From the NCBI GenBank assembly GCA_965209235.1, contig OZ242382.1:10613-74612 (forward strand): a stretch of 64,000 nt of DNA, read 5' to 3'. The position numbers were made by a program, and so were the translations under genes. Of the stretch, positions 15,629 to 37,158 are shown in pieces; position 1 is the stretch's first letter, and each line of letters begins with the position of its first letter. The DNA comes from Gammaproteobacteria bacterium (lineage in GTDB: Bacteria; Pseudomonadota; Gammaproteobacteria; G965209235). Under the pieces are notes generated by a model that worked only from the letters and a program-made list of their open reading frames with translations, made no database searches and was not told the origin of the DNA.

Positions 15629-15658
15629 TTATTTCGGATAGGGACGTAAGGAGAGAAA

Positions 15659-17649: not shown

Positions 17650-17671
17650 GATCGTCTCCTCTTCCGTGTTG

Positions 17672-18751: not shown

Positions 18752-18831
18752 GATGCCCAAACTTGTGGCGAAACGTCAAACGAATTGTAGGACTGCCACC
18801 CAATCATCACAACCGCAGCGGTCAAGCTCCT

Positions 18832-20300: not shown

Positions 20301-20750
20301 CTAGAGCGCTGTGACGGACACCTTGATCGTGACAGAGCGTTCAGGGTGCGGCACGACCTCGATACCTTCCGCGTCCCCAATGGCACGAATAGGCCCGGAT
20401 GGCATGCGAATCATCTGCGGTACCAAGTCAATGCCCTGTGCTTTCGCTTCTGTCGCGATTTCACGAGCACCGATGGAGCCGTACAAGCGGCCGCTGGCCA
20501 AAGCTCGAGCGGATATCACCAATTCAACAGAGGAGCACTGTTCAAGCACACGATCGGCCAGCTCCATGCGCTGCAGCGCGGCACGCTCAAGCTCCTTCCG
20601 TCGATGCATCACCATCTTTTGGTTTTCCGGCGTACACCTGACAGCAGCACCGCTCGGTAGCAGATAGTTGCGGCCATACCCGTCTTTGACGGCGACTTCA
20701 TCGCCAACGCCGCCCAAGTTAGCAAGGCGCTCCATCAAAATCACTTTCAT
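20301..20750 (-). CDS. rplI: 50S ribosomal protein L9
   Basis: MKVIL...LG..GD.V.VKDGYGRNYLLP, GRLYGSI. Confidence 0.96.
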   Translation of the reverse strand: MKVILMERLANLGGVGDEVAVKDGYGRNYLLPSGAAVRCTPENQKMVMHRRKELERAALQRMELADRVLEQCSSVELVISARALASGRLYGSIGAREIATEAKAQGIDLVPQMIRMPSGPIRAIGDAEGIEVVPHPERSVTIKVSVTAL

Positions 20751-21700
20751 GCTTTATCTCCTTGATTGTCAATCGCCAACCGCATCTGCGGAAGGCCTTC
20801 GGCGATTACATACACACATATCACACCAATTAGCGCGATAGCTGCCCACGTTGTCGGTTCCATTCCCAGTCCACCCAAGTACAAGCCTGCCGGGATCGCC
20901 GGCAAGAATGTGGGCGGAATTGAGGACAAAACAAACGCTAAAGTTGGCCGCATTCCGCGCTTGCAGAGCACGACCCACAGTGCTCGCCAAAGCACCGTAG
21001 GCGCTAGTATAGCCACAACGGACTCATTGCCATGTAGGAACGCAACTAGGCACCCAACCGCAACGATGCCAAATGAGATCAACTTCGTGCCTGCCAGTTG
21101 GATATTTCGAAGAACAATGTTGATGCGGGCATAGAAAACGCCTAAGCCTGCATCCATCAGCCCTGCGATGGATACCGCTGCCAACCCAACGGCTGCAATG
21201 AGTCCATCGAGCAATGAATCTCCCAACGACAACGCAGCCTGAAGATCAACAAGTACTGTTTCAATCTGTTGAAGCGCCAAGGTATCGAAATCCAAGACGC
21301 CATCAGCCACTAAAGCGGTCACTGGGAATCCCAGCAATAATACGCTCCATCGCAAGCGGCGAGTCAAACCCACTCTTCGGATCGTTGACAGCACGACAAG
21401 CACAGGCATCGCCAAGAGAAATGTCGGGTCTAGAGCATCAGCAAAGAGCCACTCTGCCATGGCAATAGCGACCAGACTGGCCACCAAACCAAGGAAAAGT
21501 GAGCCAATGCCCAGAGCGGCAGCCGCCGCCAACGTGATTGCAACGGTGAGGAGGGATACGCCGTACCCCGCCAACGTGTCAGCACTTGTCCACACAATCG
21601 CCTTTGCTGCTAACGCAACAAGCGATATAGAGGTGACCCCTCCAGCGATCCAGTTAGTCCAGCGATACGCGTGCGACACACGCCTGGCTTTGGAGATCAG
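20747..21700 (-). CDS. Polytopic membrane protein between rpsR and rplI (YybS/DUF2232-like position)
   Basis: Multiple hydrophobic segments and a conserved syntenic slot. Start uncertain: CTG 21700 overlapping the rpsR stop, or GTG 21679. Confidence 0.6.
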
Positions 21701-21918
21701 TCTGTGTAGGGAAGCAATCCCAAAAAGCGAGCACGACGCACTTCCTTCGCAAGTTTGCGCTGAGCTTTCGCGGTCAAGCCACATCGACGAATCGGGACGA
21801 TCTTCCCTGAATCAGTGAGGTACCCACGTAGCAACGAGATATTCTTGTAATCAATATCCGCTAGCGATGGCTTTTCATGCTTGATGGGATCAGCTGTCCT
21901 GGTAAAACGCTCTTTCAC
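21697..21918 (-). CDS. rpsR: 30S ribosomal protein S18
   Basis: IDYKN..LL..Y....GKI.P.R..G..AK.QR.L...[11 protein letters not shown]. Confidence 0.95.
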
Positions 21919-22358
21919 GATTCTTTGCCCTCTTCAGCATCATCAACGCCGATTTCAGCGTCGTCACTATCACTATCACTGTCACGATCGTTGCGGTCGG
22001 GTGTGTCGCCAACAGACTGTCGGCCTTCGCGCTCAGCACGCACTTGCATCAGCAACTGCGACTCACCCGACTCCAGTTCATCCTCACGGCGCACGATCAT
22101 ATGGCGCACCACTACATCACTGACGCGCAACATCTCGTCAAGTTCTTCGCGAGCCTCATGCGCACAACTAAAGTTGACAAGATAGTAGTCAGCCTTGTGC
22201 AAGCGCTGCATTTCGTAGGCCAGCGTTCGCCGGCCGATATCTTCGCTACGATGGATCGTGCCATCTTTCTCAATAATTTTTAGAGCTCTTTCGATACTCG
22301 CACCCCTTCGCTCAAGCATATCAGGGTGGGTGAGAAAGACAAGTTCGTAGGTGCGCAT
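21915..22358 (-). CDS. rpsF: 30S ribosomal protein S6
   Basis: MR.YE.VF..HPD, ED.GRR.LAY...LHKA.Y.L.N, V.R.MI; acidic C-terminal tail. Confidence 0.95.
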
Positions 22359-22373
22359 TCAAAGCCAAGACAA

Positions 22374-22394
22374 CCCATGCGGCACACGCATGGG
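22374..22394 (-). terminator. Hairpin between the dcw cluster end and rpsF (terminator or rpsF leader element)
   Basis: 8-bp stem CCCATGCG/CGCATGGG with 5-nt loop, followed on the minus strand by TTGTCTT; only 15 nt before the rpsF ATG. Confidence 0.4.
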
Positions 22395-22410
22395 CCGCTT
22401 TCATTGCGAA

Positions 22411-22992
22411 TTATATGGTGCGGAGCACATCGATTCGATGAACATCCCTTTGAAGGGTGCGCGCACGCGCAATTGATGCGGCATCCGTGGTCGAAATTTG
22501 CTCACCACGAACGAAGAGTTTGAACACTTGTCTTTCCCGTCTGGAGCGGCCGATATCCCAGATACTAGGGTCGGCATCTGCCGTGTTGTCACACAAGTGC
22601 ACTTCACCTGGGCATCGTCCCTCGACCACGTCAACCAGTTCCATCGCATCTGACCACCACGGCTCAAGGGCCCGAATTCGCGCGTGCTTCAGGTTGAGCT
22701 CGCGTGCGTGGTGCAACACCGCGTCGCAGTAGCCGACATCCTCACGAGAACCCAGGTCAGCGAATAACGCCGTGACTGCAGGCACCTGCCCCCAGTGGTC
22801 ATGCAACCACGGCGGCAAGTCATCGGTTGTACGCTCCACCGAGCCAGGAAAGCGCGCAAGGTGTGCTATCTCAAAGCTTTCCAGTGGTGGGCGGGTCGCC
22901 GACAGCAAGACAGGTCGATGTTTTCGCCAGACCGCATCTGGCGACCCATCAGTCAACGGTGAGGTTCCAATCACGATGGCATGTGTGGCCAT
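22411..22992 (-). CDS. Highly degenerate, truncated FtsZ-like protein (193 aa) in the ftsZ slot
   Basis: Last gene of the dcw cluster. HAIVIGT ~ IKVIGVG; TALFADLGSREDVGYCDAVLHHARELNL ~ [28 protein letters not shown]; LEPW ~ TKPF; EVHLCDN ~ SLITIPN. Likely start ATG 22992. Confidence 0.55.
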   Translation of the reverse strand: MATHAIVIGTSPLTDGSPDAVWRKHRPVLLSATRPPLESFEIAHLARFPGSVERTTDDLPPWLHDHWGQVPAVTALFADLGSREDVGYCDAVLHHARELNLKHARIRALEPWWSDAMELVDVVEGRCPGEVHLCDNTADADPSIWDIGRSRRERQVFKLFVRGEQISTTDAASIARARTLQRDVHRIDVLRTI

Positions 22993-22996
22993 GACT

Positions 22997-23833
22997 TTAG
23001 TGCAATCCTCGCATGCAGGCACCCAAGAGCGCTAATAAGCCGGTGTTGGATTCGATGACAGTCTGCAACGCGCCAGTCTCGAGCCGAGATCCAAACGTCG
23101 CTTGCGTCGCCTCCAGTGCTCCGACATGCACAGCATCTCCCGTCGCCGGGCTCGGCAAAAGTCCGACTTTGATCGTCGATCGCTTGGGCCTGTTGGCGCC
23201 TGAAAACAACTCTTCGAACAATGTCTCAAACGCCTCGCGATAGCGCATGCGATCGACGCGCCCGTCCAACGTGGCATCATCAACCCACCCTGCGTCATCA
23301 GAGCCCCCGGCCCCACTCACGAAAACGCACGACGCACTGACAAACGTCCAACCCGTATCACTTCGTACCCAGGACGCTCCAGATACATACCCCTCATCGG
23401 CCAAGAGTGTGAGTAGCTGTGTTGCCGCCTCACGACTAGCGCGAAGAGGTGCGAGCAATTTCCACGCCACGGGATAGTTCACGACCCCCTGCCGTTCTTG
23501 ACTCCACACCGCAGCAATGGCGTCGTGCCATTGCTGCGCATCCTCACCCGAAGTGAGATAGGTCTTTAGAGGCGGGACGCCCCAATACGCGGTGTACTCC
23601 GCAATCACCGGGGACGAGTCTGGCACGCGGACCCCTTGTCTCCACCGAAAGTGAACCAAAGACAACTCTTGCTGTTTTTCCTTTGGCAGCCGTGACACGA
23701 CAGACGTCAACCACTCAGCAGCATGATTCGATGTCTCGGGCGCCGCAGTGATGCCATACACCTTCACTTGTGTTCGTGCCTGCATCGCCAATATCCAGTA
23801 CCTCTCAGTCAATAAGAGAAGGCAGCTTCTCAC
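22997..23833 (-). CDS. Highly degenerate FtsA-like protein (278 aa) in the ftsA slot
   Basis: GTGA-coupled to ftsQ. RYREAFETLFEEL ~ RYTELLNLVNEEI; TGDA ~ TGGA; GALEATQATFGSRLETGA ~ GLAACAQRVFHTQVRIGA; VKVYGITAAP ~ VNIIGVGSCP. Confidence 0.65.
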   Translation of the reverse strand: MRSCLLLLTERYWILAMQARTQVKVYGITAAPETSNHAAEWLTSVVSRLPKEKQQELSLVHFRWRQGVRVPDSSPVIAEYTAYWGVPPLKTYLTSGEDAQQWHDAIAAVWSQERQGVVNYPVAWKLLAPLRASREAATQLLTLLADEGYVSGASWVRSDTGWTFVSASCVFVSGAGGSDDAGWVDDATLDGRVDRMRYREAFETLFEELFSGANRPKRSTIKVGLLPSPATGDAVHVGALEATQATFGSRLETGALQTVIESNTGLLALLGACMRGLH

Positions 23834-24591
23834 GCGTCTACAGTGCGCCGACAGTGAACGGCGTAAAGATCCGGCGCCGTTGTGACACCCGCAGAATAGG
23901 TTGTTACCACACGAATGTTCCGCCGATCCGGTGCGTAAGCAAGATATGCCAACGCCCGAGCCAAACGTGTGGGAAATTCGCGGCGACCCAGTTCAATACG
24001 CCTCGCCCCGTTTACGACAACCGCCCAAGACGTTACAGCGTCACTGGGCACACACACAGCATCCACAGAAATACCGTTAGATGCCATGTGGACAGCTGTG
24101 ATCAACGAAATCGCTGTAAGGACGTCGTCATGGGCGAGCTCTCGATCGGAATCGATAACTGGCAGGCGCGCGATGAGGTCGTCGATCAGCGGCGGCGGCA
24201 AAATCGTGGCATCGGCAAAAATAAGCCGATGTCGCTTGGTAATCGCAATCGGCGGTGCGTTACGCACCACGACATCAATCCCGCGGTCAAACGTGAGCTT
24301 GGCCTTGATGTACTCCGCACTGGGCAAGATGTCATTGAAGAGACCAATGGCATCTTGCGTGAGACACGTCCGTTGTTTCTTGCAGCGTTGGAAAAACTGC
24401 TGAGCAACAGCCTCTGGGTCAAACCAGATCGCTTCTTCTTGATGGGCATCTGTGACGCTTATCCGCATCCACATCGGCTCATACGTCATCACGGCCATAA
24501 TCAAAATCATGAGCGGCGACACAACCGCCGCCACCCACAAGATGACCGTATTGCTCCGAACTGTCGGGAGCGAGTACTCGTGACTACGCAT
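23830..24591 (-). CDS. ftsQ: Divergent cell division protein FtsQ
   Basis: Follows ddl; single N-terminal TM; POTRA-like LP...I.....D.GI.V.V....PIA; SW.VVVNG...IELGR....RL.R; terminal Y..G. Likely start ATG 24591. Confidence 0.65.
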   Translation of the reverse strand: MRSHEYSLPTVRSNTVILWVAAVVSPLMILIMAVMTYEPMWMRISVTDAHQEEAIWFDPEAVAQQFFQRCKKQRTCLTQDAIGLFNDILPSAEYIKAKLTFDRGIDVVVRNAPPIAITKRHRLIFADATILPPPLIDDLIARLPVIDSDRELAHDDVLTAISLITAVHMASNGISVDAVCVPSDAVTSWAVVVNGARRIELGRREFPTRLARALAYLAYAPDRRNIRVVTTYSAGVTTAPDLYAVHCRRTVDA

Positions 24592-25483
24592 CAAGGCAAT
24601 CACCAACCGCCAAGGAGATGAGTTTGTCAATCACATCCTCGAATGACCATCCCCTAAGAAGAGCGGCTTTCGGGACGAGTGACTGAGCCGTCATTCCCGG
24701 CGTGGCGTTAATCTCCAGCAGATGTAGCGCGTCGTTGTGAACAATCAAGTCGACGCGTGACCAGTGTCGCAGCCCAATCAGCCGATGGGCTTCCAGCGCA
24801 ACACGCTGGGCTTGTATGATCACGGATGACTCGGTTACAGGCACGTATTGCGTGTCGCGCCGAGAGTATTTCGCGTCGTAGTCATAAAACGCATTTGCTG
24901 CGCTAATCCATAACGGCTGAAGTGGGCAGTTGTCTATGATGGCAACCGTGCATTCGCGTCCGTCAGCCACGCATTCGGCGAGCACATCCCCATGTTTAGC
25001 AGCCATGTCAAACGCCTCATCAATCGGCGCGTGGTTTCGTCCGGCAATTGACATGCCCACCGATGACCCTCCGCAGTTGGGCTTGATGAAGGCTGTGCCG
25101 CCAAACGCCTGACAGGCTTGTTGAGCTTCTTCGATCGAAGTCACTAAGCGCCCATCCAGTACCGGCAACCCACACCTTCCCCATAGCGACAAGCAGGCAA
25201 ACTTGTTCATCGCTAACGCCGAGGGACTAGCGGCGCTCCCGGTGTACGGGACCTTGAACATCTCTGCGATCGTGGCTACAGCCCCGGACTCGCCCGGAGC
25301 GCCGTGGCACGCATTAAAAACCACATCTGGCCTGTCAGACATGAGTTCTCGCCCGAGATCCTCCAACGGAATCAGGACCGGCTGATGTCCCAGTTGGCGG
25401 GCCGCTTGAAAAACCGCATCCGCAGAGCGACGTGAAATATCTGCTTCGCTGCGATTGCCACCCCAAGCGATGGCTACTCTCAT
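24584..25483 (-). CDS. ddl: D-alanine--D-alanine ligase
   Basis: GG..SE..IS..S, HG.PGE.G, IKP..GGSSVG, FYDYDAKY omega loop, RVD, LEINATPGMT. Confidence 0.93.
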   Translation of the reverse strand: MRVAIAWGGNRSEADISRRSADAVFQAARQLGHQPVLIPLEDLGRELMSDRPDVVFNACHGAPGESGAVATIAEMFKVPYTGSAASPSALAMNKFACLSLWGRCGLPVLDGRLVTSIEEAQQACQAFGGTAFIKPNCGGSSVGMSIAGRNHAPIDEAFDMAAKHGDVLAECVADGRECTVAIIDNCPLQPLWISAANAFYDYDAKYSRRDTQYVPVTESSVIIQAQRVALEAHRLIGLRHWSRVDLIVHNDALHLLEINATPGMTAQSLVPKAALLRGWSFEDVIDKLISLAVGDCLDA

Positions 25484-26895
25484 TGCGAGGGGGACATCAA
25501 CGACGAGGCCAGATTGCTCACGTCACCGGCCCCTTGGATCAAAATGACGTCGTCTTCTTTGACAATCGCTTTCAACGCATCCATTACTCGACTCAACGTT
25601 TTGGGAAAGACGGGAGTGACTTGACGCTGCTCACGGATCACCCGGCACAAGTCCTCCGTGGTCCCGCCTTGATGAATCGACTCTCCAGCCGGATACACGT
25701 CCAGCAACACGAGCTCATCCACACTCGCCAGCGTGGATGCAAAGGCATCGAGATGAAACGATGTGCGGCTGTACCGATGCGGCTGGAACACCACCACCAA
25801 TCGCCTCTCTGGCCAGCTCGCGCGCACGGCGGCAAAAGTGGCTTCCAATTCCGTCGGATGATGTCCGTAGTCGTCAACAACCAGTGTCTTCACACCGAGC
25901 GCCGTCGTCTCCCCGCGCACCTCCATGCGCCGATGAACCCCTTCGAAGCTCATGAGCGCAGACAAAGCCGCGTCGCGCTCAACCCCTTCAATACTGGCTA
26001 TCGTCAAAGCTGCCACCGCATTCAACACCATGTGCTGCCCGCGCAGCGGCGTTGATACCTCAGTGGGCCCTCCGCCAAAGATGCCATGGGTCACAAAGGT
26101 TGCGCCATCTTGCTTCAGTTCGATGTCTGTGACACGGACGTCAGCATCAGGATGCGCGCCGTAGGTCACAACTTTTCGAGGCACCCGCGCAGCCATCTGC
26201 CTGAGTACGGCACTGTCCGTCCCCACCACGGCATAGCCAAAAAAAGGCAACCGATGCAAAAACGCTTCGAAGTGCGCGATAAGCTTCTTCATGTCACCGT
26301 CAAATTTCTCGAGGTGATCAGCATCAAGGTTGGTGACGATCGTGATATCGGGCGCCAAACTTTCAAAAGTCCCATCGCTCTCATCAGCTTCTGCCACCAT
26401 CCAACCATGACGGACCAGCGCTCGTCCTTTCCCTAGTCCTGCCAGCAGCCCTCCGACAACAGATGTTGTCGGCATCCCGCCGTGAGACAGAAGATGTGAG
26501 ACCATGCCGGTGGTCGTCGTTTTGCCGTGCGTGCCCGCCACCGCAATGCCGTTGTAGAGACGCATTAATCCCGACAACATCTCAGCGCGAGGAATGACGG
26601 TCGCAACCGTTCTGGCGTATGCGAGTTCAAGATTGGTATCCGGTACCGCTGGCGAATACACCACCAAGTCAGCACCGCGCGCAGCGTGCGTTTGATGCCC
26701 TATGGCAACATCAACACCTAACGCGACAAGTCGGCGCGTTTGCGGGGATGGGTTGGCATCAGATCCCGTGATGTGATAGCCCATGTGATACATGAGCTCA
26801 GCGATCCCGCACATCCCTGAGCCGCCAATCCCAATGAAGTGCACACGGCGAATACGCGCAAGTGGGCCGTGCGCGTCTCGCGCATGATCCCTCAC
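25480..26895 (-). CDS. murC: UDP-N-acetylmuramate--L-alanine ligase
   Basis: HFIGIGGSGM, AGTHGKTTTT, EADESD, DDYGHHPTE, FQPHRYSRT. Confidence 0.96.
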   Translation of the reverse strand: MRDHARDAHGPLARIRRVHFIGIGGSGMCGIAELMYHMGYHITGSDANPSPQTRRLVALGVDVAIGHQTHAARGADLVVYSPAVPDTNLELAYARTVATVIPRAEMLSGLMRLYNGIAVAGTHGKTTTTGMVSHLLSHGGMPTTSVVGGLLAGLGKGRALVRHGWMVAEADESDGTFESLAPDITIVTNLDADHLEKFDGDMKKLIAHFEAFLHRLPFFGYAVVGTDSAVLRQMAARVPRKVVTYGAHPDADVRVTDIELKQDGATFVTHGIFGGGPTEVSTPLRGQHMVLNAVAALTIASIEGVERDAALSALMSFEGVHRRMEVRGETTALGVKTLVVDDYGHHPTELEATFAAVRASWPERRLVVVFQPHRYSRTSFHLDAFASTLASVDELVLLDVYPAGESIHQGGTTEDLCRVIREQRQVTPVFPKTLSRVMDALKAIVKEDDVILIQGAGDVSNLASSLMSPSQ

Positions 26896-27956
26896 GCGTT
26901 CAGTCGCTCAACAATTTGCTGCGCAATCCGTCGCGCGGCTGCGACAGAAGCCACTTTCTCATCAATGTCAACAGGGTTGGGTATCACGCGGATCTCTTCG
27001 ATCGCGTCATGCAAAGCCTCACCTCCATCCGCTTGCTCAACGATCTTCACCCAAGGGCGACCAGCGACAAACTGGGCATTCGCGCGCTGATGATCTTTAG
27101 CAGCATGAGGCAGCGGAACAACGATGGCCTTCCGGGGAGCGCTCACAATCTCAGCCAACGCTGACGCACCGCCACGCGTCACGATGACGTCAGACTTCGC
27201 GATGTCATCTTGGATATCCGTCGCGTACTCCACCAAATCCACGGTCACGGTCTTTGACATGCGCGAAGACAGCGCCTTAAGTTCCCGACGCACCGTTTCA
27301 TGAAGAAGCCGCCCTGTTACCCAAGTCACATGTAAATCATGCCCGTGGAACAACGAGTGCCACAGCAAGGTGAACAGCCCTTGAGCGCCACTGCTACCAC
27401 CGACGACGAGAACACGACACGCTTTTTTGTTTGGGGGAGGAGCCATCCCCTCAAAAGCCGCGCGCAGCGGTATCCCCTCTCTGTGGTACTTTTTCCCTTG
27501 CAGCGTTTGATTAAATCCGAGATAAACCCGTTCACTAAATGGGGTCAGGGCCTTGATTACCATGCCGGAAAAAGCATTTTGCTCAAGAAGCCATATCGGA
27601 CGACGAGCGCCAACCGCGGCAAAGCTCCCAGGGGTGGCTGCATACCCTCCCGATGAAAACACAAGATCTGCATCACACCGCTTCAAAATTTGGCGTCCCC
27701 GCAACAAAGGGATCAGCGCCAGTTTCAGAATGCGGACGGCGATATTTGCGTTACCAGGTATCAAATCGGAGCACTTTATCGCCGGAATACCGGCCTCCTT
27801 AGCGAGATTCCTTTCAACTGCGGTCATGCTGAGCCAACAACTGTCGACACCGAGAAGTTTGAGTTGCTCGGCAATCGCCAGCAACGGATACACGTGTCCA
27901 GCTGTCCCGCCACCCGCGAAGGCGACAGTGAAACGTCGAGATTTGGATCGCGGCAT
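26892..27956 (-). CDS. murG: Lipid II GlcNAc transferase MurG
   Basis: GGGTAGHVYP, GGY, EQN, GGSSGA, RGGASALAE, HQRANA. Likely start ATG 27956. Confidence 0.92.
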   Translation of the reverse strand: MPRSKSRRFTVAFAGGGTAGHVYPLLAIAEQLKLLGVDSCWLSMTAVERNLAKEAGIPAIKCSDLIPGNANIAVRILKLALIPLLRGRQILKRCDADLVFSSGGYAATPGSFAAVGARRPIWLLEQNAFSGMVIKALTPFSERVYLGFNQTLQGKKYHREGIPLRAAFEGMAPPPNKKACRVLVVGGSSGAQGLFTLLWHSLFHGHDLHVTWVTGRLLHETVRRELKALSSRMSKTVTVDLVEYATDIQDDIAKSDVIVTRGGASALAEIVSAPRKAIVVPLPHAAKDHQRANAQFVAGRPWVKIVEQADGGEALHDAIEEIRVIPNPVDIDEKVASVAAARRIAQQIVERLNA

Positions 27957-27963
27957 ATGAAGG

Positions 27964-29088
27964 CTAGTCGGGGCGGTTGAGAGAGAGGCCAATCAAGAAC
28001 GAGGCTGACACCATGAATGTCCCTCCTCGCGACGCCATAAAAACCGGTTGTCCGGTGACCGGCATCCATCCATAGTTGACAAGAATGTGAATGACCGCTG
28101 GCACCGCAATGAGCATTGCTGCTCCGGTCGCGACAACGGCACGCCATTCATCGCGCACATCACGGTCGCCCATGCTACGAGAGACGAGCACAAACACCAG
28201 TAGCGCGACAAGTGATTGTATGAGCGCCGCCCAAGCTGTTCCCCAATTCCGGTGCGCCGCGGCCAGCATGAAGTCAGAGTCAGCATCAGGGATACTCGCT
28301 TTTCTGCGTCCTTCTTCCAATCCCAGACCACTCAGCCCGCCAGCGTCGATCGCCTCGCTAGCTTTTGTGGCTTGAAATGACGGCACTGCATCTTGAGAAG
28401 TAAAGGCCTCTAGACGGCGCTGGACGTGTGCATCTGCATAGTCGCTCATGATGAAAGCCACACAAGCCACCAACAGGGCAACCGCACTCGGAACCACCCA
28501 CTTCCAAGGTGGGTCGGCCATCATGACAGTGAAACCAATCACGGCCATCAAGACGAGCGCTCCCGACGTGTCTGGCTGCAACGCCGTCAAGACTGCGATG
28601 ATGATTGACATGACGCCCACACTCAACCATCGAAACAGACAGGTATCGTCGCGCCGTTGTTGTCGCAGCCCTTGCCGCGAAAGCGCCAACATGGCAATGG
28701 CAAAAATCATGGCCAGCTTGGCCAATTCACTTGGCTGCACGCTCACGCCGGCCCCGGGAATGGCGATCCAGCGGAATGCTCCCTTCGTGCTCGTCCCGGC
28801 AATAAACGGCGCCAGCGCCAGTGCAAGACTGATCCCAAGTGCAACCCAAAACCAGAAAGTGCGGGTCAACCACGGCCGCGGTATCCGCCAACCGACTATC
28901 AGTGCGACCCCCGCAATGGCGTAGTACAAGAGCAACTTGAAGCCTGGCGCCGTGACGCTGGCCTGAGACGCGATGCCGTACTGCGTCGCAAACCCGACCA
29001 CCGCCAAGCTGCCCAAGACCGCAAGTAACGTACGGTCCCAGTACGCCCAGCGCGGAATAGCGATCACAGTGCGCCTCGTTCCATCCAT
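27964..29088 (-). CDS. ftsW: SEDS peptidoglycan glycosyltransferase FtsW (divergent)
   Basis: GA.RWI, QPSELAKL, QPD, PDADSDF (catalytic Asp position), PVTG..S.GG; lies between murD and murG. Confidence 0.85.
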   Translation of the reverse strand: MDGTRRTVIAIPRWAYWDRTLLAVLGSLAVVGFATQYGIASQASVTAPGFKLLLYYAIAGVALIVGWRIPRPWLTRTFWFWVALGISLALALAPFIAGTSTKGAFRWIAIPGAGVSVQPSELAKLAMIFAIAMLALSRQGLRQQRRDDTCLFRWLSVGVMSIIIAVLTALQPDTSGALVLMAVIGFTVMMADPPWKWVVPSAVALLVACVAFIMSDYADAHVQRRLEAFTSQDAVPSFQATKASEAIDAGGLSGLGLEEGRRKASIPDADSDFMLAAAHRNWGTAWAALIQSLVALLVFVLVSRSMGDRDVRDEWRAVVATGAAMLIAVPAVIHILVNYGWMPVTGQPVFMASRGGTFMVSASFLIGLSLNRPD

Positions 29089-30302
29089 TGGACAAATTGC
29101 CGACCTCGCTCAGCGAAATCTGAAAACTCATCCTGGCTCGCTCCCCCTGGAGACAACACGATATTTCGCTTCGTATCGATGGCGCGCGTCCTCACCGAAT
29201 GCGCAGCACCGCGCAGCGAATCAAATCGGGTGATCGGGAAATGGTGCTCCTGCGCCATCTGTTCTAGCGACTCACCGCTTTCACCAAAACACACCACTTC
29301 GCACCCATAGGCGCACAAACGCCGCATTAAAGACACATCGGGCAATTGCTTCCAGCGTCCCCCAAGCAACCAAATGGGCGGAATAGCATCGCTCTGTTCA
29401 ATGGCCCGTAACCTCTGCTCGACGGCAGCAACATTGGTCGCTTTGGAGTCGTCAATGACGTGAAAATCGGCCATGGAGTGTGTTTGACCGCGATGAGGCA
29501 ACCCCCGCCACGCGCGCGCGACCTGATCCACATAGTGATGGGGTACTCCCATGACCGTCGCAACGGCCGACGCGACCGCACCTGGCGTTTCGAGGCGCGC
29601 AGCTACCGCGCATGGATGACCGTCTTCAGGCATGGTTCTGAGATCGCGCTCATTAAAGATCGCCCGAGACGAACATCGATGAAGGCCTCGTTTTGTTTTT
29701 GCATAGTGATCCATCGTGCCATGGACATCCAGATGATCCTCCTGAACGTTGAGTACAACAGACACCTCACACGCAAAAGGCGCCTGCGTTTCCAGCTGAA
29801 AGCTCGACAGCTCCACCACCGCCCACTCCGGGCGCAGTGAGAAAGCGGACAGTATCGGATATCCATAGTTACCGCACTCAACTACAGCTGCGCGCGGTTG
29901 ATACGCTCGGAGAACAGCGGCAATAAAAGACACGGCTGATGACTTGCCGTTTGTTCCCGTCACAGCGATGACATGTCGGGGAGCGGGCATCCATGCTGAC
30001 GCGAGGTCAAGAATTCCAAGCACCGTTCGTTGTTGCGCCGTCACCGACTGTACGAGCTGATGCCTCATTGACAGACCAGGTGACTTCACAATGAGAGAGC
30101 AATCACCAAGTTCGCCCACATCGCTGACTCCAGTCTGCACAGACAGGTTCGGAAAGACATCGCGCGCCAGCGGGAGAAGCGGTGGGTGCTCCCGAGTGTC
30201 CACACAACGGACAGTCATTCCGCGCACCATTGCAAAGCGCGCGGCGTCCATCGTCTCCTCGCCGAGACCGAGCAACAACAGTTGAGGAAGTGCTGACTTC
30301 AA
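29064..30302 (-). CDS. murD: UDP-MurNAc-L-Ala--D-Glu ligase
   Basis: TGTNGKS, ELSSFQLE, LNVQEDHLD.H, DDSKATN, SPGGASQDEF..F.ERG. Likely start TTG 30302 (TTGA overlap with the mraY stop). Confidence 0.93.
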   Translation of the reverse strand: MKSALPQLLLLGLGEETMDAARFAMVRGMTVRCVDTREHPPLLPLARDVFPNLSVQTGVSDVGELGDCSLIVKSPGLSMRHQLVQSVTAQQRTVLGILDLASAWMPAPRHVIAVTGTNGKSSAVSFIAAVLRAYQPRAAVVECGNYGYPILSAFSLRPEWAVVELSSFQLETQAPFACEVSVVLNVQEDHLDVHGTMDHYAKTKRGLHRCSSRAIFNERDLRTMPEDGHPCAVAARLETPGAVASAVATVMGVPHHYVDQVARAWRGLPHRGQTHSMADFHVIDDSKATNVAAVEQRLRAIEQSDAIPPIWLLGGRWKQLPDVSLMRRLCAYGCEVVCFGESGESLEQMAQEHHFPITRFDSLRGAAHSVRTRAIDTKRNIVLSPGGASQDEFSDFAERGRQFVQWMERGAL

Positions 30303-31273
30303 GACGCAATACTCCAGGCCGCAAGCAAGCAGCCTGCAACCGTCAAGATCCACAGGCGAGCCACCAACCGCGGCTCGGGTACGCCGCCAAGCTCCCAGTG
30401 ATGATGAATCGGCGCCATGCGAAGCACACGTTTCTTATTGCGTAACTTGTACGAACCCACTTGGGCAATCACTGACAGCGCTTCGATCACAAATAACACG
30501 CCAGCAATCGGAAGAAGGAACACTGCGCCTTGCAAGATCGCCGTTGTGGCAACCATGCCACCAAGAAAAAACGATCCGCTGTCACCCATGAAAACACGCG
30601 CGGGATGAGCATTGACACAGACAAACGCGAGGCAACCACCCGCGGCCCCAGCTGAAATCACCGCGACATCACCATGCGCAAAACTCAGCGATAAGGGAAG
30701 AAGAGCGGCTGCAAAGAACACGACGGCACACGCCCCTCCCGCCAGTCCATCCATACCGTCGGAGAGATTGACGGCATTGGTTGTCCCGACGATCACGACC
30801 ACACCAATCGCACCTACAACCAGCGCGCCCAACGAGATGGATCCCAGCCACGGAACAGCCTGAAGTGTTGGCAGTCCACCAGGCGCAAACGCCAATCCCG
30901 CCATGAACGCAACGCCAATGAGTATGAGACCAAGCATTTTGTAGCGCGGCTTAAGACCGTCGTGCGACCGACCAATGAGCTTCAGAGCATCATCGAGTCC
31001 GCCAAGCCCCCCGCAAGCCATCCCAACAGCAAGGACAGCCCAACCACGCCAACTCAGTGCAGACGCATGGACTGCCGCACTCGCGAGTGCGCCCATCATG
31101 ATGATGACACCCCCCATCGTTGGTGTACCCGCGCGGTCGTAGTGACTTTTGGGACCGACTTGACGGATCTGTTGCCCAATCCGCAAACGCTGGATTGTTT
31201 TGATCGTGACGTTGGAGACCAACAGACCCGCAAGCAGCCCGACCAGCGTGGCTGTGGCAATGGTTCCCGTCAT
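30299..31273 (-). CDS. mraY: Phospho-MurNAc-pentapeptide transferase
   Basis: GTPTMGG, LDD..K, NAVNLSDGMDGL, VFMGDSGS, MAPIHHHWE. Confidence 0.96.
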   Translation of the reverse strand: MTGTIATATLVGLLAGLLVSNVTIKTIQRLRIGQQIRQVGPKSHYDRAGTPTMGGVIIMMGALASAAVHASALSWRGWAVLAVGMACGGLGGLDDALKLIGRSHDGLKPRYKMLGLILIGVAFMAGLAFAPGGLPTLQAVPWLGSISLGALVVGAIGVVVIVGTTNAVNLSDGMDGLAGGACAVVFFAAALLPLSLSFAHGDVAVISAGAAGGCLAFVCVNAHPARVFMGDSGSFFLGGMVATTAILQGAVFLLPIAGVLFVIEALSVIAQVGSYKLRNKKRVLRMAPIHHHWELGGVPEPRLVARLWILTVAGCLLAAWSIAS

Positions 31274-32634
31274 GATGGCCGTTTCACCAAAGCATCCACG
31301 ACCTGATCAAGACCGGTGGCCCGAGACCCCTTGACCAGAATCGCGCCGCACTCTCGCGCCTGTTCAGTGGCCACACGGGCGGCTTGTTCAACAGTGACCT
31401 CAAGCCACGTGCCACCACATCGCGAGAACACCTGCCCCATTTCTCTCGCCAGCGATCCCACTGTGAGTACCGCGTCTATACCCAAATCAGCAGCTTCACG
31501 TCCCATCTGTTTGTGCCACTCAACACTCGATGGACCCAGCTCCAACATGTCTCCCACAATCGCCACCTTCGGTGTCTGTTCTTTGGCGAATCGTTCAAGC
31601 GCTGACCGCAACGAGACGGGATTGCTGTTGTAACTATCGTCAATCACAATCGCACCTGTATCGCGAAACCGGCGTTGGAAGCGTCTGGGCTCCATGTCGG
31701 CCAGCGCAATATCGCGCGCACATTGAGGGAGCGCCTCTCCTGCCAGAACAGCCGCCGCCAGCGCAGCCGCCCAGTTTCCCGCCTCAATGGCGTCACTTGG
31801 CACGACCGGAAGCTCCGCACTTTCGCCCCCCACGGACACCGTCGCTGTCTCCCGGTCGACGTGAGAAAAGGCCGCTTGATCACTGGCAAAGGTCTGGACG
31901 CCGTCAATGCAGAGTTCTCGGGCCAACGCTAGCAGTGTCGGATCCGCCTGCGGCAACAACGCAGCGATGTGAGATGGGAGAAGTCCTTTTGATTGCTCCG
32001 CGAGGCGCAGCTTCTCGCGCCTCACCGTCTGAATACTTCCCAATCCTTCGAGATGCGCCGCGCCGACATTGACCACGATGGCAAGGTCGGGTCTGACAGC
32101 ACGCGCCAGCTCAGACATATCCCCGCGCTCACTAATTCCCACTTCGCAAACGAGTGCCGCCGCGTGTTCAGGGGTGTTGAGCAGCGTTAATGCGACACCT
32201 AGTCGATTGTTGTAGCTGCGTTTTGATGCGCAAACAAGTCCTTTTGATCGCAAGGCTGCCGCGATCAGCTGCCGCACGGTCGTCTTGCCAGCTGAGCCGG
32301 TGACGCCAATGACTGGGCAGCTCAGTGTTGAGCGATACCAAGAAGCGATGGCAATGAGCGCGTCTCCCACATCATCGACAGCAATCAGTGTCATCCCGTG
32401 GGAGATGGTCGGGTTATCGGTGATCTGTGACCGGCAAACAAGAGCAACAACGGCGCCGCTGCTTCGTGCGTGAGACAGGTAACCGTGACCATCTGTACGC
32501 TGACCTGGCAGCGCTGCAAACATCACGCCATCCGCAACATCACGACTATCATGCGCGACGCCGGACCACGTGACGTTCGGTCCATGCACCTCGCACGCGT
32601 CGAGGACGGCGGCGCATTGCGCAACGGTGGGCAT
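31270..32634 (-). CDS. murF: UDP-MurNAc-tripeptide--D-Ala-D-Ala ligase
   Basis: DSR, TGSAGKTT, YNN.LG, AHLEG, DDSYNSNP, GDMLELG, VKGSR. Confidence 0.94.
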   Translation of the reverse strand: MPTVAQCAAVLDACEVHGPNVTWSGVAHDSRDVADGVMFAALPGQRTDGHGYLSHARSSGAVVALVCRSQITDNPTISHGMTLIAVDDVGDALIAIASWYRSTLSCPVIGVTGSAGKTTVRQLIAAALRSKGLVCASKRSYNNRLGVALTLLNTPEHAAALVCEVGISERGDMSELARAVRPDLAIVVNVGAAHLEGLGSIQTVRREKLRLAEQSKGLLPSHIAALLPQADPTLLALARELCIDGVQTFASDQAAFSHVDRETATVSVGGESAELPVVPSDAIEAGNWAAALAAAVLAGEALPQCARDIALADMEPRRFQRRFRDTGAIVIDDSYNSNPVSLRSALERFAKEQTPKVAIVGDMLELGPSSVEWHKQMGREAADLGIDAVLTVGSLAREMGQVFSRCGGTWLEVTVEQAARVATEQARECGAILVKGSRATGLDQVVDALVKRPS

Positions 32635-34169
32635 TAGCGAGCTCTCGCTGCCAGCGCCCGTGATGCGACATCCGCATCATGCAGCGGAACAAGCTTCGGT
32701 TCCCCGCGATCGAGCCATTTCTCCATTCCACGTCCGAGTATCAACACCACATCACCAGGGTGAGCACTGGCCACAGCAGCTTCAATGGCACGCTGTCGAT
32801 CCAAAATGAGCCGTACATCACCTCCCTTTCGTCTCACAGACTGTGCCATGACATTGGCAATGGCCGCTCGATCTTCCGTTCGTGAATTGTCTTCAGTCAC
32901 AATCAATACATCCGCTTGACCACAAACTCGACCCAACCCCTGACGTCTCGCGATCGGCCGACAGCCCCCGCCTCCGACAACGCACACAAGGCGCCCACCT
33001 AATTGTGGTTTCCACTCAGACATCACCTGCCAGGCAGCACCGCCGGTGTGGGCATCATCAATCACGATGGTCACATCGTCAGCTCGAAGAACTTGCGCAC
33101 GCCCAGGTGGCGGCGGGACGTTTGATAGGGCTGCGACCGCATCCGACGCATTCACGCCTTGTGACCAAAGCGCTCCCACTGATAGCGCAAAGCTCGCGAC
33201 TGACAGACGACCACTCGTGCGCACGAGTGCTTCACAGACTTCGCTGCCAACACGCAAGCGCACACAGGAACCTGTCGCGTTATCAGCAATGCTCTCAATC
33301 ACAACATCAGCACTTTGGTGATGAGTGCTACGAACACCAGGAAGCAGTGGTATTTGCGACTTCACTCGCACCACTTGTGCTCCCGATGCGATCGCTCGGG
33401 ACGCCATGCGCGGTGCGTATCGGCACGGCGACCATATCACGGCCGAACGCAAACCATAGGCCGCCCACAGCTGTGCTTTGGCCTCGACGTATGCACCCAT
33501 CGTTCGATGCAGATCAAGGTGATCCCGGCGTATCCCCGTAAAAACACCACACTGCACCGTGACATCGGCCATTCGACGCTCCAACAGCGCTTGGGAGCTC
33601 ACTTCCGCCGATAACCACCAAGACTGCCCGGCCTGAGCATCAAAATCAGATAACAATCGAGGCCACGCGGCGCGCGTGGGTGTGGTTTCCGTCGCTGTTC
33701 GCAATGTTTGTCCAATCAATCCCACACCTAACCCGCCAACCATTGCGCTGGGGTTTCCCATCTCATGCAAGGCATGCCCACACATCCACATCACAGTTGA
33801 CTTACCGTTGGTGCCTGTCACCGCAATGGTGCGATAGGGATGGCGCGGGGTGCGGTACACGTGGCGCGTCATCTCATGAGCCATCTTCGAGAGATGAGGA
33901 GACACAAGGCACGGCAATGTGGTACAGGCACCCTGACGGTCAGTCACAACCGCAACCGCTCCATTACGTTGGGCCTGATCCAGTGCGCGATCTGTTATGC
34001 GGTGAGATGCACCGACAAGCACAAGCACATCACCCGGCCGCACGTGCGCGGAATGGTGCGCGATTCCCGAAAACTCACGAGGCGGCGGATGAGACCAAGA
34101 GTGCACCCCACACAACGCCTCAATAATCCCGCACGGATACGCTCGGGATCGTGGCTCACTGCTCGGCAC
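32634..34169 (-). CDS. murE: UDP-MurNAc-dipeptide--meso-DAP ligase (divergent)
   Basis: TGTNGKST, TTP, EVSS, RDHLD.H, D.AHT, DNSR (for DNPR), GRG.E (for GKGHE). Confidence 0.88.
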   Translation of the reverse strand: MPSSEPRSRAYPCGIIEALCGVHSWSHPPPREFSGIAHHSAHVRPGDVLVLVGASHRITDRALDQAQRNGAVAVVTDRQGACTTLPCLVSPHLSKMAHEMTRHVYRTPRHPYRTIAVTGTNGKSTVMWMCGHALHEMGNPSAMVGGLGVGLIGQTLRTATETTPTRAAWPRLLSDFDAQAGQSWWLSAEVSSQALLERRMADVTVQCGVFTGIRRDHLDLHRTMGAYVEAKAQLWAAYGLRSAVIWSPCRYAPRMASRAIASGAQVVRVKSQIPLLPGVRSTHHQSADVVIESIADNATGSCVRLRVGSEVCEALVRTSGRLSVASFALSVGALWSQGVNASDAVAALSNVPPPPGRAQVLRADDVTIVIDDAHTGGAAWQVMSEWKPQLGGRLVCVVGGGGCRPIARRQGLGRVCGQADVLIVTEDNSRTEDRAAIANVMAQSVRRKGGDVRLILDRQRAIEAAVASAHPGDVVLILGRGMEKWLDRGEPKLVPLHDADVASRALAARAR

Positions 34170-36027
34170 TGGCGACGCTAAACGTCGGCACTAAGCCATA
34201 ACGCGCCACAAGTGCCTTTGAGATATCTCGAAAAATGGGACCCGCCACTAGCTGTGCATCGGAAACTGTGGATGCTGGAACGCACTCAACCGCAATGGCA
34301 ACCGCAAAGCGCGGTTGATGCACCGGAAAGAACCCAGCGATTAGAACGTGTTGAATGTGCTTTGGAACGCGCTTGCCAGCCGGCGGCTCGATGTTGCAAT
34401 GACGGCGAATAAGCTTTTCAGACAGATACCGGTCATCCTCATCACCGTCCTCTGCCACCGCGATCTGAACCGTTCCGGTCTTCGCAGCGATCTCAAATCC
34501 TGGAAGATCTGCGCGATCCCCCGTGCCTCCGATAACAACGGAACGCATCCAACGGGTCACCGTTTCGACATTGTCTTCTGACGCAATATGCGAGAGACAA
34601 GGTTGTGCCGGGATTGGCGCTCCCTTAGAACGGCTTGTGGTGGAAGCGTCCAGTCCCAGCAAAATCGGAGCCAGTGCTTTGTAGCACCCCTTACGAGCGA
34701 GTGCCGCGTAGGCGTTAACTAAGTGAACAAGCGGAATAAGCTTGCCGTGCCCATAAGACAGCCTCACGAACTCTCGCTTGGTGGATCCCGTGGATGGCAG
34801 CGAGCATTTGGCACGACCGCGAATATGCTCTTGGCTACAGATGCCCGCTTTGAGCAGCAGATCCGTAAATGGTGCGCCTCGGCGCTCGCCAACCTCCGCG
34901 TCACCATAAATCCGCTCTGCCAGAGCGATGGCAACGTCCTGAGATGAAATCTGCAGCGCTTTACGGAGAGAGATGAACTCGGGTTCAGAGGGTTTATGAG
35001 ATGTGTGATGAAACTGGTCTGACGGCTTCGTCACCTTTGATTCCAGCGCGGACAGATAAAGAAATGGTTTCATCGTTGACGCCGGTTCAAGTGCTGAGTC
35101 CATCGGGCGATTCACCTGAAAATCCGTAGATTCTCCGGAGTTTAAGCTCCAACCAGGCACAGATACACTGGCAATAACGCTCGACGTGGGAATGTCTACG
35201 ACGACCGCTTGCGCTGCTAATCCGAGCGACCGTTTTAATCCTCGTTTAAGCGCGTGATACGTCACGCATGAGACGGGCGCATCAAGCGTTGTCCACGCCA
35301 CGTGATGACGATCTAATCCCCACTGTAGCGTAGCTGTGTCCGCACGATCTGGCTGAACGAGATTCTGTAAATCCCATTCCATTTGCGTGAGAATCCATCG
35401 CGACTCATCTTGGAGTGGTGCGCGTCCAATGATCGTTCCGAGACATGATCCTTGCGGCGAGTACCGCTCGCGCACAAAACGAATATCAAGAGCGCGCCAG
35501 ATGCGGGTGGACCCGGCATCGCGATGTAACTGAGGTAAGGCGGCAAGCTCCATAGGGTCATCCGTGAGCGCAAACCACTTTTGCCCGCTCTCCCAAGCAG
35601 AGTGAGCCGCTTGACGCAACTGCTCGGTGTCACCGTAGTCTTGCAGTTCCATCACCCATGAGCTGTCGTTGACTAACTCGACGAGTGGGTCGACAGCAGG
35701 TTCATCTGTTTTCGCTTCTTCGCACCCTAACCCCAAGAGGTCGCATTGCGGATCATCCCCGAAAACGGATCGAGCTCTTTGTCGAATGTGGTCAAACGCC
35801 GACATGTCACGCTCGCTGGCCAACGCATCGGCCTCAGTCTGCCGGATACCGTACACGGCTTCCAGATCAAGCACGAGTGTGAATGAAGTTCGATCGACAG
35901 CGATGGGTGTTCCAGTGCGATCAACAATAGTTGGCCGGATGCCTTCCAGAGGGACAGGAATCTTCGGTGCGGCTTGAGCAGCGAACGTCAAAAGACATAC
36001 CACCGCACCAACAGTTGTCTTGTACAC
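34156..36027 (-). CDS. ftsI: Class B penicillin-binding protein FtsI/PBP3 (divergent)
   Basis: R.TIVDRTG.PIA, R.Y, TTLD, EPASTMK (SxxK), SSQ, SYGHG, AKTGT; position before murE; GAGGT RBS. Confidence 0.82.
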   Translation of the reverse strand: MYKTTVGAVVCLLTFAAQAAPKIPVPLEGIRPTIVDRTGTPIAVDRTSFTLVLDLEAVYGIRQTEADALASERDMSAFDHIRQRARSVFGDDPQCDLLGLGCEEAKTDEPAVDPLVELVNDSSWVMELQDYGDTEQLRQAAHSAWESGQKWFALTDDPMELAALPQLHRDAGSTRIWRALDIRFVRERYSPQGSCLGTIIGRAPLQDESRWILTQMEWDLQNLVQPDRADTATLQWGLDRHHVAWTTLDAPVSCVTYHALKRGLKRSLGLAAQAVVVDIPTSSVIASVSVPGWSLNSGESTDFQVNRPMDSALEPASTMKPFLYLSALESKVTKPSDQFHHTSHKPSEPEFISLRKALQISSQDVAIALAERIYGDAEVGERRGAPFTDLLLKAGICSQEHIRGRAKCSLPSTGSTKREFVRLSYGHGKLIPLVHLVNAYAALARKGCYKALAPILLGLDASTTSRSKGAPIPAQPCLSHIASEDNVETVTRWMRSVVIGGTGDRADLPGFEIAAKTGTVQIAVAEDGDEDDRYLSEKLIRRHCNIEPPAGKRVPKHIQHVLIAGFFPVHQPRFAVAIAVECVPASTVSDAQLVAGPIFRDISKALVARYGLVPTFSVASAEQ

Positions 36028-36031
36028 AGTC

Positions 36032-36472
36032 TTACCTCATTGCGTGAGTTCGCGACGTCGCGTCGAGTTGTTCACTCACCGCTTCGCCAATCGTTTGAGC
36101 TGCTGTCACGGCGTGTGGCTCATCAATGGCAAAAATCGTGCCCGCGATGATGGCTTCGAGATTGATTGCCTTACGCTGCATAACAGGCAGAGGATCGTTC
36201 ACAGCAATCCCAGCCGGATCACAAAAAACGGACGCACTCGGCACCCGTCCAGTGTTATCCGCATCTCCCCTCAATGTCTTTTCACAACCCGCTAGTTGGG
36301 ATCTCTCAGTGCTCAGATTGACGTCAACCACATGAAACCCAAGCATGGCGACACTGAGAGTGGCATTAATAACCCAAAGAGATCGCGTCAGTCTGCGCGG
36401 GTTGATCACGCGTCGCTGGACTGTCTCGCGAGGATCACGACGTTCCCAAGAATGATTTGGAGGTCTATACAT
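36032..36472 (-). CDS. Single-TM protein in the ftsL slot (possible divergent FtsL)
   Basis: Arg-rich N-terminus, one hydrophobic segment, short possible coiled coil; directly upstream of ftsI. Confidence 0.4.
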   Translation of the reverse strand: MYRPPNHSWERRDPRETVQRRVINPRRLTRSLWVINATLSVAMLGFHVVDVNLSTERSQLAGCEKTLRGDADNTGRVPSASVFCDPAGIAVNDPLPVMQRKAINLEAIIAGTIFAIDEPHAVTAAQTIGEAVSEQLDATSRTHAMR

Positions 36473-36475
36473 GTG

Positions 36476-37045
36476 TCAGGCCGCCTCCCGCGGATACTCA
36501 TGACATGGTGACTGCCAAAGATGCTCACACAGCGCCTTGCGCGTGGGCTCTGAACACAGTGGCAGAAGAGAGTGCCCTGCATCTTCTGGCGGAGCAAACA
36601 TGACTTTTGTAAACGTCTCAAGACCCCACAAGGAGATCACTGAACGCTCTAAGGAGACATGCAAATTGCGAGGCTGCGCATCACTCATGGCTAAGTGAAA
36701 ACGATGAATCTGCGGAATAACAAGCGTCGCTCCGGATGTTTCCAACCGAACTGCCAGTACTTGCACGGTATTCAGTCGCAACAAGATCTCTCGATCGCCG
36801 CGCAGTGACTGATCGGCCGCTTCTCGGACAGCGTTGTAGGAGCGATCAAAGTGTTCGCGACTCATGACGTTGACGCAAGGCAGAGACGGATCCAAGCACA
36901 CAGCTAATTCGCCTGTGTTGTCGCCGCCAAACCAGTTTGACGAGACATAACGACGCACTTCAATCGGAAGAGTAAGACGTCCCTTGGGGTCTAACACGAC
37001 GACTTGGGACTGCGCGTGCATGCCATTCGTAGTGGGGGCAGTCAT
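36476..37045 (-). CDS. mraZ: MraZ-like transcriptional regulator (divergent)
   Basis: LDPKGRLTLP first AbrB repeat; second repeat degenerate (LETSGATLVIP); first gene after rnpB. Likely start ATG 37045. Confidence 0.72.
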   Translation of the reverse strand: MTAPTTNGMHAQSQVVVLDPKGRLTLPIEVRRYVSSNWFGGDNTGELAVCLDPSLPCVNVMSREHFDRSYNAVREAADQSLRGDREILLRLNTVQVLAVRLETSGATLVIPQIHRFHLAMSDAQPRNLHVSLERSVISLWGLETFTKVMFAPPEDAGHSLLPLCSEPTRKALCEHLWQSPCHEYPREAA

Positions 37046-37158
37046 GTGCTTGCGCCAACATCGAGGCGAACGCAAGACTTTACATCATTTGCACATTCTG
37101 GCGCAAGTCTCTGACATTTTGGTTCATTATTGAAGCATTCTCCAACAATTCCCTTGGT

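Follow-up and report, generated by a model that had tools for sequence, protein, structure and literature searches.

What occupies the ftsA position of a division and cell wall (dcw) operon in a genome in which no FtsA is detected? This question is raised by a 64,000-nucleotide stretch of a gammaproteobacterial genome (assembly GCA_965209235.1, contig OZ242382.1, positions 10,613 to 74,612), which is called the window here and whose numbering is used for all coordinates within it. Three consecutive open reading frames (ORFs) lie in the window at the positions of ftsQ, ftsA and ftsZ, and are referred to as slots Q, A and Z. The ORF of interest is slot A, which lacks the motifs that define FtsA. 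The explanation favored here, to which somewhat less than an even chance is given, is that slot A is a maintained, extremely diverged and shortened descendant of ftsA that has lost the defining features of the family and acts as a nucleotide-independent adaptor of the divisome.

Slot A is very probably a real protein-coding gene. Its GTG start overlaps the TGA stop of the slot Q ORF as GTGA, with two bases common to both, and its TAA stop is separated by 4 nucleotides from the ATG (22992) of the slot Z ORF. A preliminary description of the locus, made from the nucleotide sequence alone, had reported this coupling and a length of 278 residues compared with about 420 in E. coli FtsA; the ORF coordinates, the overlap and the 420 residues of the E. 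coli protein were confirmed. An independent gene call in the protein collections (P0001, 262 residues) begins at Met17, for which the codon is the in-frame ATG at 23785, and no well-placed Shine-Dalgarno sequence was seen by eye before either the GTG or the ATG. Together the three ORFs tile positions 22411-24630 of the minus strand without a gap. At about 0.038 stops per random codon, as estimated from base composition, the chance of one open frame of 278 codons is about 2.6e-5, and the chance of three adjacent, co-directional, abutting open frames is estimated to be far below this value.

The composition of slot A is also that of a gene. Its codon log-odds score of 0.109 per codon (ddl 0.110, murG 0.110) lies between the 5th and 25th percentiles of 542 long training ORFs. 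Among 285 shadow ORFs with 150 residues or more, the mean score is -0.036 and the 95th percentile is 0.070, which slot A exceeds. The GC contents of its three codon positions (GC1/GC2/GC3) are 0.60/0.51/0.63, compared with 0.63/0.46/0.62 in the long ORFs, and its base composition and codon use are native to the genome. Slot A is not itself a shadow ORF, because the longest ORF antisense to it has at most 87 codons and no longer ORF overlaps it on either strand. That the genome does contain long frames without coding function is shown by a frame of 283 residues on the plus strand (23770-24621, antisense to slot Q) whose codon score of -0.072 is that of a shadow ORF. The product is a cytoplasmic-type protein with no transmembrane segment, and its tryptophan content of 3.6% is above the 95th percentile of the proteome (median 1.4%).

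It is the position of the gene that argues for descent from ftsA. In the dcw cluster, a mraZ-like ORF, an ORF in the ftsL position, another in the ftsI position, murE, murF, mraY, murD, ftsW, murG, murC and ddl precede slots Q, A and Z, after which come a terminator-like hairpin, rpsF, rpsR, a membrane ORF and rplI. For comparison, 40 relatives were used, all of them related at the level of the class only. Of 28 loci of this class, 26 have FtsQ next to FtsA, and 26 have FtsZ next to it. FtsA exceeds the TIGR01174 cut-off in 39 of the 40 relatives (38 of 39 without the unpublished genome G039), and FtsZ is matched at E<=1e-10 in 39, with 38 over the cut-off (38 of 39, with 37 over the cut-off, without G039). 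One relative of 0.4 megabases (Mb), G024, has neither FtsA nor FtsZ.

None of slots Q, A and Z belongs to a family in Pfam or NCBIfam, and slot Q accordingly has no FtsQ match there. Profiles of the class FtsA, FtsQ and FtsZ proteins were made from ORFs in the loci of 8, then 28, relatives together with the E. coli protein (29 sequences for FtsA). Slot Q is the second-best of 29,691 six-frame segments for the class FtsQ profile (E 3.1 genome-wide) and reaches a HMMER E of 1e-4 in a single planned comparison. Its residues 106-250 are colinear with residues 107-253 of E. coli FtsQ over 141 columns (hhalign P 0.012), and BLASTP pairs it with three FtsQ sequences at E 0.002-0.03 and at matching coordinates. 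From these alignments, slot Q is probably a genuine FtsQ that has diverged very far. The partner in the GTGA overlap had been named as ftsQ in the preliminary description; the overlap stands, and the upstream ORF is weakly recognizable as ftsQ by the single HMMER comparison. The ORF in slot Z showed no FtsZ or tubulin match and no tubulin signature in family and profile searches. Compared with the FtsZ profile, it gives hhalign P values of 0.29-0.45, which is noise level, and the best pairing (P 0.3) aligns its residues 88-111 with the part of FtsZ around the T4 loop and helix H4. Its tryptophan content is 3.0%.

Divergence of ftsQ, ftsA and ftsZ in situ, after the lineage gave up the FtsZ ring, would be the simplest account of this arrangement, in which three abutting, open, codon-normal ORFs fill the interval from ftsQ to ftsZ and the first of them bears traces of FtsQ. 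The genome is a single contig of 1,473,301 bases with a marker-gene completeness of 89%. By codon-score gene selection, about 1174 ORF-genes with a mean length of about 377 residues cover 89.6% of it, and the median gap between them is 12 nucleotides; the genome is gene-dense and not pseudogene-ridden. Some function of slot A is probably still under selection, because a genome that is 90% coding should delete dead genes, and frames that have diverged beyond recognition should be broken.

Which components of the division machinery does this bacterium keep? The preliminary description had suggested a genome search for another ftsA, zipA, sepF or mreB. None of these is detectable, and neither is ftsZ. 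Genome-wide, no FtsA, FtsZ or other tubulin was matched (E<=10 or E<=1), and TIGR01174 gave zero matches at E<=10 in the six frames of the whole genome. The MreB model found only frames of 599 and 650 residues (63 and 40 bits compared with a cut-off of 366), which are taken as Hsp70 paralogues. ZipA and SepF were not detectable genome-wide, no MinD exceeded its cut-off (the best match has 41 bits compared with 213), and no significant FtsB/DivIC match was obtained. The peptidoglycan-precursor pathway has been kept, as have FtsW, a diverged FtsI, the diverged FtsQ and FtsK (169 bits in a frame of 761 residues). Extreme divergence seems to be confined to the division proteins, because the NCBIfam cut-offs are exceeded by murE, murF and mraY and RecA, also in the window, has 505 bits, whereas the ORF in the ftsI position reaches only 45-71 bits. 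As a separate observation, a frame of 1847 residues with an FtsK/SpoIIIE-type domain (96 bits) lies outside the window at G000:C1:1172696-1173169 on the minus strand; frames of 1583 and 1100 residues were also met, and the genome holds several giant ORFs.

The motifs by which FtsA is known are absent from slot A. In FtsA of E. coli K-12 (420 residues), LEIGT is found at residue 13, DIGGGT at 210, RYTE at 300 and TGG at 335; the motifs of the E. coli protein were given correctly in the preliminary description. Among the 29 class FtsA proteins, the glycine and the threonine or serine of the phosphate-1 loop, the first glycine of the phosphate-2 loop and the two glycines of the adenosine motif are present in 29, and the aspartate of the phosphate-2 loop in 28. 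The strings that had been mapped onto these motifs do occur in slot A (LLLTE at 6, LADEGY at 144 and TGD at 231, with RYRE at 197), and the nucleotide motifs are missing as described; the mapping itself is not above chance and its register is unstable. The phosphate-1 loop (L-D/E-I-G-T-S/A-K near residue 13) is absent from slot A: LLLTE at 6-10 is free of glycine, and it is part of the 16 residues before Met17 and hence outside the P0001 gene call. The phosphate-2 loop DIGGGT is also absent, and no alignment tool pairs LADEGY with it. The adenosine motif V-L-T-G-G is absent as well, and TGD is offset from TGG in both hhalign alignments. No SHS2_FTSA match was found in slot A.

Length and C-terminus differ in the same way. 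Class FtsA proteins have 403-434 residues (about 411), so that slot A, with 278, is about 140 residues shorter and has no room for a full subdomain 1C plus 2B. Slot A stops directly after ...TGLLALLGACMRGLH (GLLALLGACMRGLH), about 10 residues past a hydrophobic stretch that contains GLL and bears a loose resemblance to the final core helix of FtsA. The lack of an amphipathic membrane-targeting tail, proposed in the preliminary description, agrees with this end: a W..GNF-type tail is found in 26 of the 29 class FtsA C-termini printed, the other three having variant tails, and slot A is without it.

As a maintained descendant, slot A would have lost both phosphate loops, the adenosine motif and about 140 residues, including the room for subdomain 1C, along with the C-terminal membrane helix. 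Its product would be soluble and cytoplasmic, would not bind nucleotide and could not reach the membrane alone. Membership of the operon and the role of FtsA in other bacteria suggest that it may serve as an adaptor between the slot Z protein and the cytoplasmic parts of a membrane-embedded septal synthase made of FtsQ, FtsW, FtsI and FtsK. A broader proposal, which is considered doubtful, is that the FtsZ/FtsA/MreB/Min apparatus was dismantled and the peptidoglycan dcw operon kept, and that ftsA and ftsZ were remodelled to short, selected proteins devoid of nucleotide-binding motifs, forming with FtsQ, FtsI, FtsW and FtsK a new division module that needs neither FtsZ nor MreB nor any nucleotide-binding cytoskeleton.

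Relatives of slot A were looked for in several collections. A word search of 5.8 billion clusters returned only slot A itself, and phmmer against 1.84 billion representative proteins returned slot A and one Sel1-repeat protein of 1423 residues (E 2e-6). Kinship with Sel1/TPR-like proteins was rejected; the score of this match is a sum of dependent matches, because one 44-residue stretch (27-70) is counted against each of six near-identical repeats. The best E of slot A in the 40 class relatives is 0.09. The class FtsA proteins are 46-52% identical to E. coli FtsA. Metagenome loci were reached via ddl, for which the best relatives are 31-39% identical, and in the 80 loci so obtained no counterpart of slots A, Q or Z was found (the best tblastn E for slot A is 4.5). 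FtsA is carried by 65 of the 80 loci, and canonical FtsA lies within 6 kilobases (kb) in all 30 loci of at least 12 kb.

Several results weigh against descent of slot A from ftsA. No orthologue was found in the collections searched. The codon score of slot Z, at 0.07, is borderline. Slot A itself has no Pfam match at E<=1 (FtsA, SHS2_FTSA and Sel1 included) and no NCBIfam match at E<=0.1, and nothing was found in PHROGs or PADLOC. When the class FtsA profile was run on the 29,691 six-frame segments with the HMMER filters off, slot A was not listed at E<=10, and the best match was a frame of Hsp70 size (E 0.14). In single HMMER comparisons with the 8- and 29-sequence profiles, slot A scores -3.4 and -3.1 bits (E 0.15 and 0.14). 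BLASTP against 9 sequences aligns its residues 197-255 with residues 300-360 of E. coli FtsA at 26% identity and E 0.88. The hhalign score is 20 (P 0.063-0.075), with residues 192/193-255/259 on residues 287/288-360/364 of the E. coli protein; global mode gave degenerate end-overhang alignments, which were dropped. The best local alignment is colinear, placing the C-terminal third, the last 80 residues or so, on the C-terminal third, and is not significant. As an empirical null, 331 six-frame segments of 230-330 residues were taken from this genome, and 33 of them reach an hhalign score of 20.0. The FtsQ profile gives slot A a P of 0.089, compared with 0.072 for the FtsA profile, and an evidently false pair, slot Q and the FtsZ profile, gives 0.014. 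P values of the size obtained for slot A are noise, because the false pair and the null segments score alike.

Comparisons beyond sequence profiles did not reveal a relationship either. No PDB chain was matched by sequence at E<=10. In two queries of the ESM Atlas with language-model features, no cluster reached 0.9 (best 0.87 and 0.83) and no actin-like family was returned. The language-model recognition value of slot A is 2278, and 91 of 100 proteins of known families reach 2300. AlphaFold2, run without an alignment, gave a mean predicted local distance difference test (pLDDT) value of 35.9 at full length and one of 39.4 when limited to residues 133-278, too low to read a fold. Judged by its sequence, the likeness of slot A to FtsA is no better than chance. 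Of the proposal in the preliminary description that slot A is an FtsA derivative, the ftsA position in the dcw operon stands, and homology was shown by none of the tests (Pfam, NCBIfam, profiles, the hhalign null, PDB sequences and the language model). The profile search suggested there as a check yielded no significant FtsA or actin-like match. Descent from FtsA is plausible from the position of the gene, and no sequence, profile, language-model or structure-prediction test shows it.

Can the locus be explained in another way? An unrelated, lineage-specific gene, acquired or arisen de novo, may have replaced ftsA, and its function may lie outside division. This would fit a protein of 278 instead of about 411 residues for which no method detects similarity to FtsA and no homologue is known anywhere in the collections searched, and also its tryptophan content (3.6% compared with a median of 1.4%), which is unusual for FtsA. 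However, two adjacent and normally essential genes would have to be replaced exactly by two orphans, with the tight packing and the diverged ftsQ kept. There is no mobile or phage sign at the locus, and composition and codon use are native. Such a replacement is regarded as unlikely.

Less probable still is that slot A is a decaying, still-open relic of ftsA, without function, in a host-dependent bacterium that divides by other means. All functional motifs are gone, and the partners FtsZ, ZipA and MinD are absent. The species label of the sequencing runs that contain the sequence is also attached to a 13-gigabase run of another sample that lacks it, which fits a host-associated bacterium. Loss of FtsZ in reduced endosymbionts is on record in a passage of one source (PMC4164004). 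A relic of such divergence, however, would be expected to contain about 10 stops in 278 codons, by an estimate from composition, and three adjacent, packed frames are open instead. Its codon usage is gene-like, and the coding fraction of about 90% and the median gap of 12 nucleotides indicate that dead DNA is not kept in this genome.

In canonical systems, the C-terminal peptide of FtsZ is what the 2B surface of FtsA binds. The preliminary description had slot A as an FtsA derivative with a kept R300/E303 surface that may still bind a partner tail and co-evolves with a mini-FtsZ; that slot A uses this surface to bind the mini-FtsZ tail is now considered quite improbable. R300 and E303 of E. 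coli FtsA are taken by us to contact the FtsZ tail, for which no paper stating it was found by a full-text search that did not cover supplements and subscription papers. BLASTP does pair RYRE (197-200) of slot A with RYTE (300-303) of the E. coli protein, a motif of which the arginine, the tyrosine and the second glutamate are kept in 27, 26 and 27 of the 29 class FtsA proteins. Both hhalign alignments, however, place L205-F-E-E208, eight residues further on, on R300-Y-T-E303, and in this register the arginine is not kept. The claim of a conserved docking arginine depends on an arbitrary choice, because four of the six positions of the class consensus RYEELF are matched by RYREAF and equally by LFEELF. 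The similarity is in any case at noise level. As for the proposed partner, the C-terminus of slot Z has nothing like the peptide YLDIPAFLR that is present in 25 of the 27 class FtsZ proteins printed. Retention of the FtsZ-docking residues is not supported by these alignments and should not be repeated without structural data. The probability given to this docking explanation is also counted within that of the maintained descendant, and the five judgments, from the maintained descendant to the chance frame considered next, are not exclusive.

That slot A is a chance open frame and no gene is very improbable: it has no homologues and no family, its language-model value is just below 2300 and 285 shadow ORFs of at least 150 residues exist in the genome, but no longer ORF overlaps it on either strand, its codon score and GC1/GC2/GC3 are gene-like, and it fits into the operon without a gap.

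How does slot A, as a maintained descendant of ftsA, compare with known systems? It shares with FtsA its place in the dcw operon, immediately behind ftsQ and ahead of the ftsZ slot, and the lack of a transmembrane segment. Unlike FtsA, it is about 140 residues shorter, has no family match, lacks the phosphate-1, phosphate-2 and adenosine motifs and the C-terminal helix, and is found in a genome without an FtsZ that carries the C-terminal peptide. PilM of type IV pili and the cytoplasmic domain of GspL/EpsL of type II secretion are degenerate actin-fold adaptors that bind partner peptides with reduced or no nucleotide dependence. They are a precedent for an FtsA-like fold as a docking platform. 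These families are recognizable by profile, whereas slot A is not (no Pfam match at E<=1).

Few bacterial proteins are as well conserved as FtsZ and FtsA. Planctomycetes, which are among the exceptions discussed here, divide by budding. The loss of FtsZ is known from Chlamydia, Planctomycetes and tiny endosymbionts, according to several sources (PMC4164004, PMC11975371, PMC7029139, PMC6952346, PMC4643143); in Chlamydia, division is polarized and is organized by MreB and FtsK. Chlamydial FtsQ and FtsL were found by weak similarity only (PMC4643143), FtsK is central in the division of Chlamydia (PMC11975371) and MreB serves there as the division organizer (PMC7029139). As in Chlamydia and Planctomycetes, the present genome keeps peptidoglycan genes, FtsW/FtsI, FtsK and a barely recognizable FtsQ without FtsZ. 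Unlike in Chlamydia, no MreB is detectable in it. In contrast to both groups, it belongs to a class in which nearly all sampled relatives have FtsZ and FtsA, and orphan ORFs fill the ftsA and ftsZ slots.

Among endosymbionts, Carsonella, Vesicomyosocius, Ruthia, Hodgkinia and Sulcia are tabulated as FtsZ-less in one source, which connects the loss of ftsZ with the apparent disappearance of the wall and of further division genes (PMC4164004). The present genome shares with such reduced endosymbionts a small size, the same broad proteobacterial group and the lack of ftsZ, as does G024. It differs from them in its 1.47 Mb that are about 90% coding, in a complete mur/dcw cluster and in the apparently maintained ORFs of the vacated slots. 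The combination of a class rich in FtsZ and FtsA, a full wall-precursor pathway, no MreB and orphan ORFs in the slots was not found described in a non-exhaustive literature search. Should slots A and Z hold maintained descendants, they would reveal the extent to which a cytoskeletal protein can be pared down and remain useful, and FtsZ- and MreB-independent division could be approached directly through them. Should they be relics instead, the locus would record a divisome in the course of being lost. The interest of the locus lies in this wider pattern and not in the resemblance of motifs.

The coordinates of slots Q, A and Z and of the neighboring features are collected in Table 1.

Table 1. 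Features at and around the ftsQ, ftsA and ftsZ positions, in window coordinates.
Feature	Position	Strand	Description
Slot A (ORF at the ftsA position)	22997..23833	-	278 aa from GTG, 262 aa from ATG at 23785..23783; soluble orphan protein
Slot Q (ORF at the ftsQ position)	23830..24630	-	266-aa ORF with one N-terminal hydrophobic helix; probably a very diverged FtsQ
Slot Z (ORF at the ftsZ position)	22411..23022	-	203-aa ORF from GTG at 23022 (193 aa from ATG 22992); orphan
Rest of dcw cluster, upstream side	24584..37075	-	mraZ-like, 146-aa ORF (ftsL slot), diverged ftsI, murE, murF, mraY, murD, ftsW, murG, murC, ddl; family matches
mraZ-like ORF	36476-37075	-	weak MraZ match, E 0.0015
ORF in the ftsL slot, 146 aa	36032-36472	-	one hydrophobic helix, no family
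ORF in the ftsI slot, 623 aa	34156-36027	-	penicillin-binding-protein models, 45-71 bits vs cut-offs of 455-737
Terminator-like hairpin	22370..22398	-	12-pair stem between slot Z stop and rpsF start; consensus scan
rpsF	21915..22358	-	Ribosomal_S6, 77 bits; gene next to the cluster, bounding the ftsQ/A/Z slots on the downstream side
rpsR	21712-21858	-	S18 model match

The hairpin between slot Z and rpsF is likely to mark the end of the dcw transcription unit; the consensus scan that located it found 11 sites in the region compared with 5.7 expected, and is weak on its own. At the other end of the cluster, no rsmH-sized ORF lies between the mraZ-like ORF and the 146-residue ORF. The stretch is present in three runs of one sample, and the contigs of two of them (X1 and X3), which may be the source data of the assembly itself, are identical over the region with zero variants.

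Other genes of the window lie further downstream of the cluster. A multi-helix membrane ORF of 345 residues without a family (20747-21784, minus strand) is located between rpsR and rplI, and its longest form overlaps rpsR. An AddA/AddB-like helicase-nuclease pair is found within 5372-11298 on the minus strand. A cluster of ETF alpha/beta, ETF-ubiquinone oxidoreductase and acyl-CoA dehydrogenase genes, followed by DnaB, occupies 12102-18760, and its ETF and acyl-CoA dehydrogenase genes suggest an aerobic metabolism that oxidizes fatty acids or amino acids.

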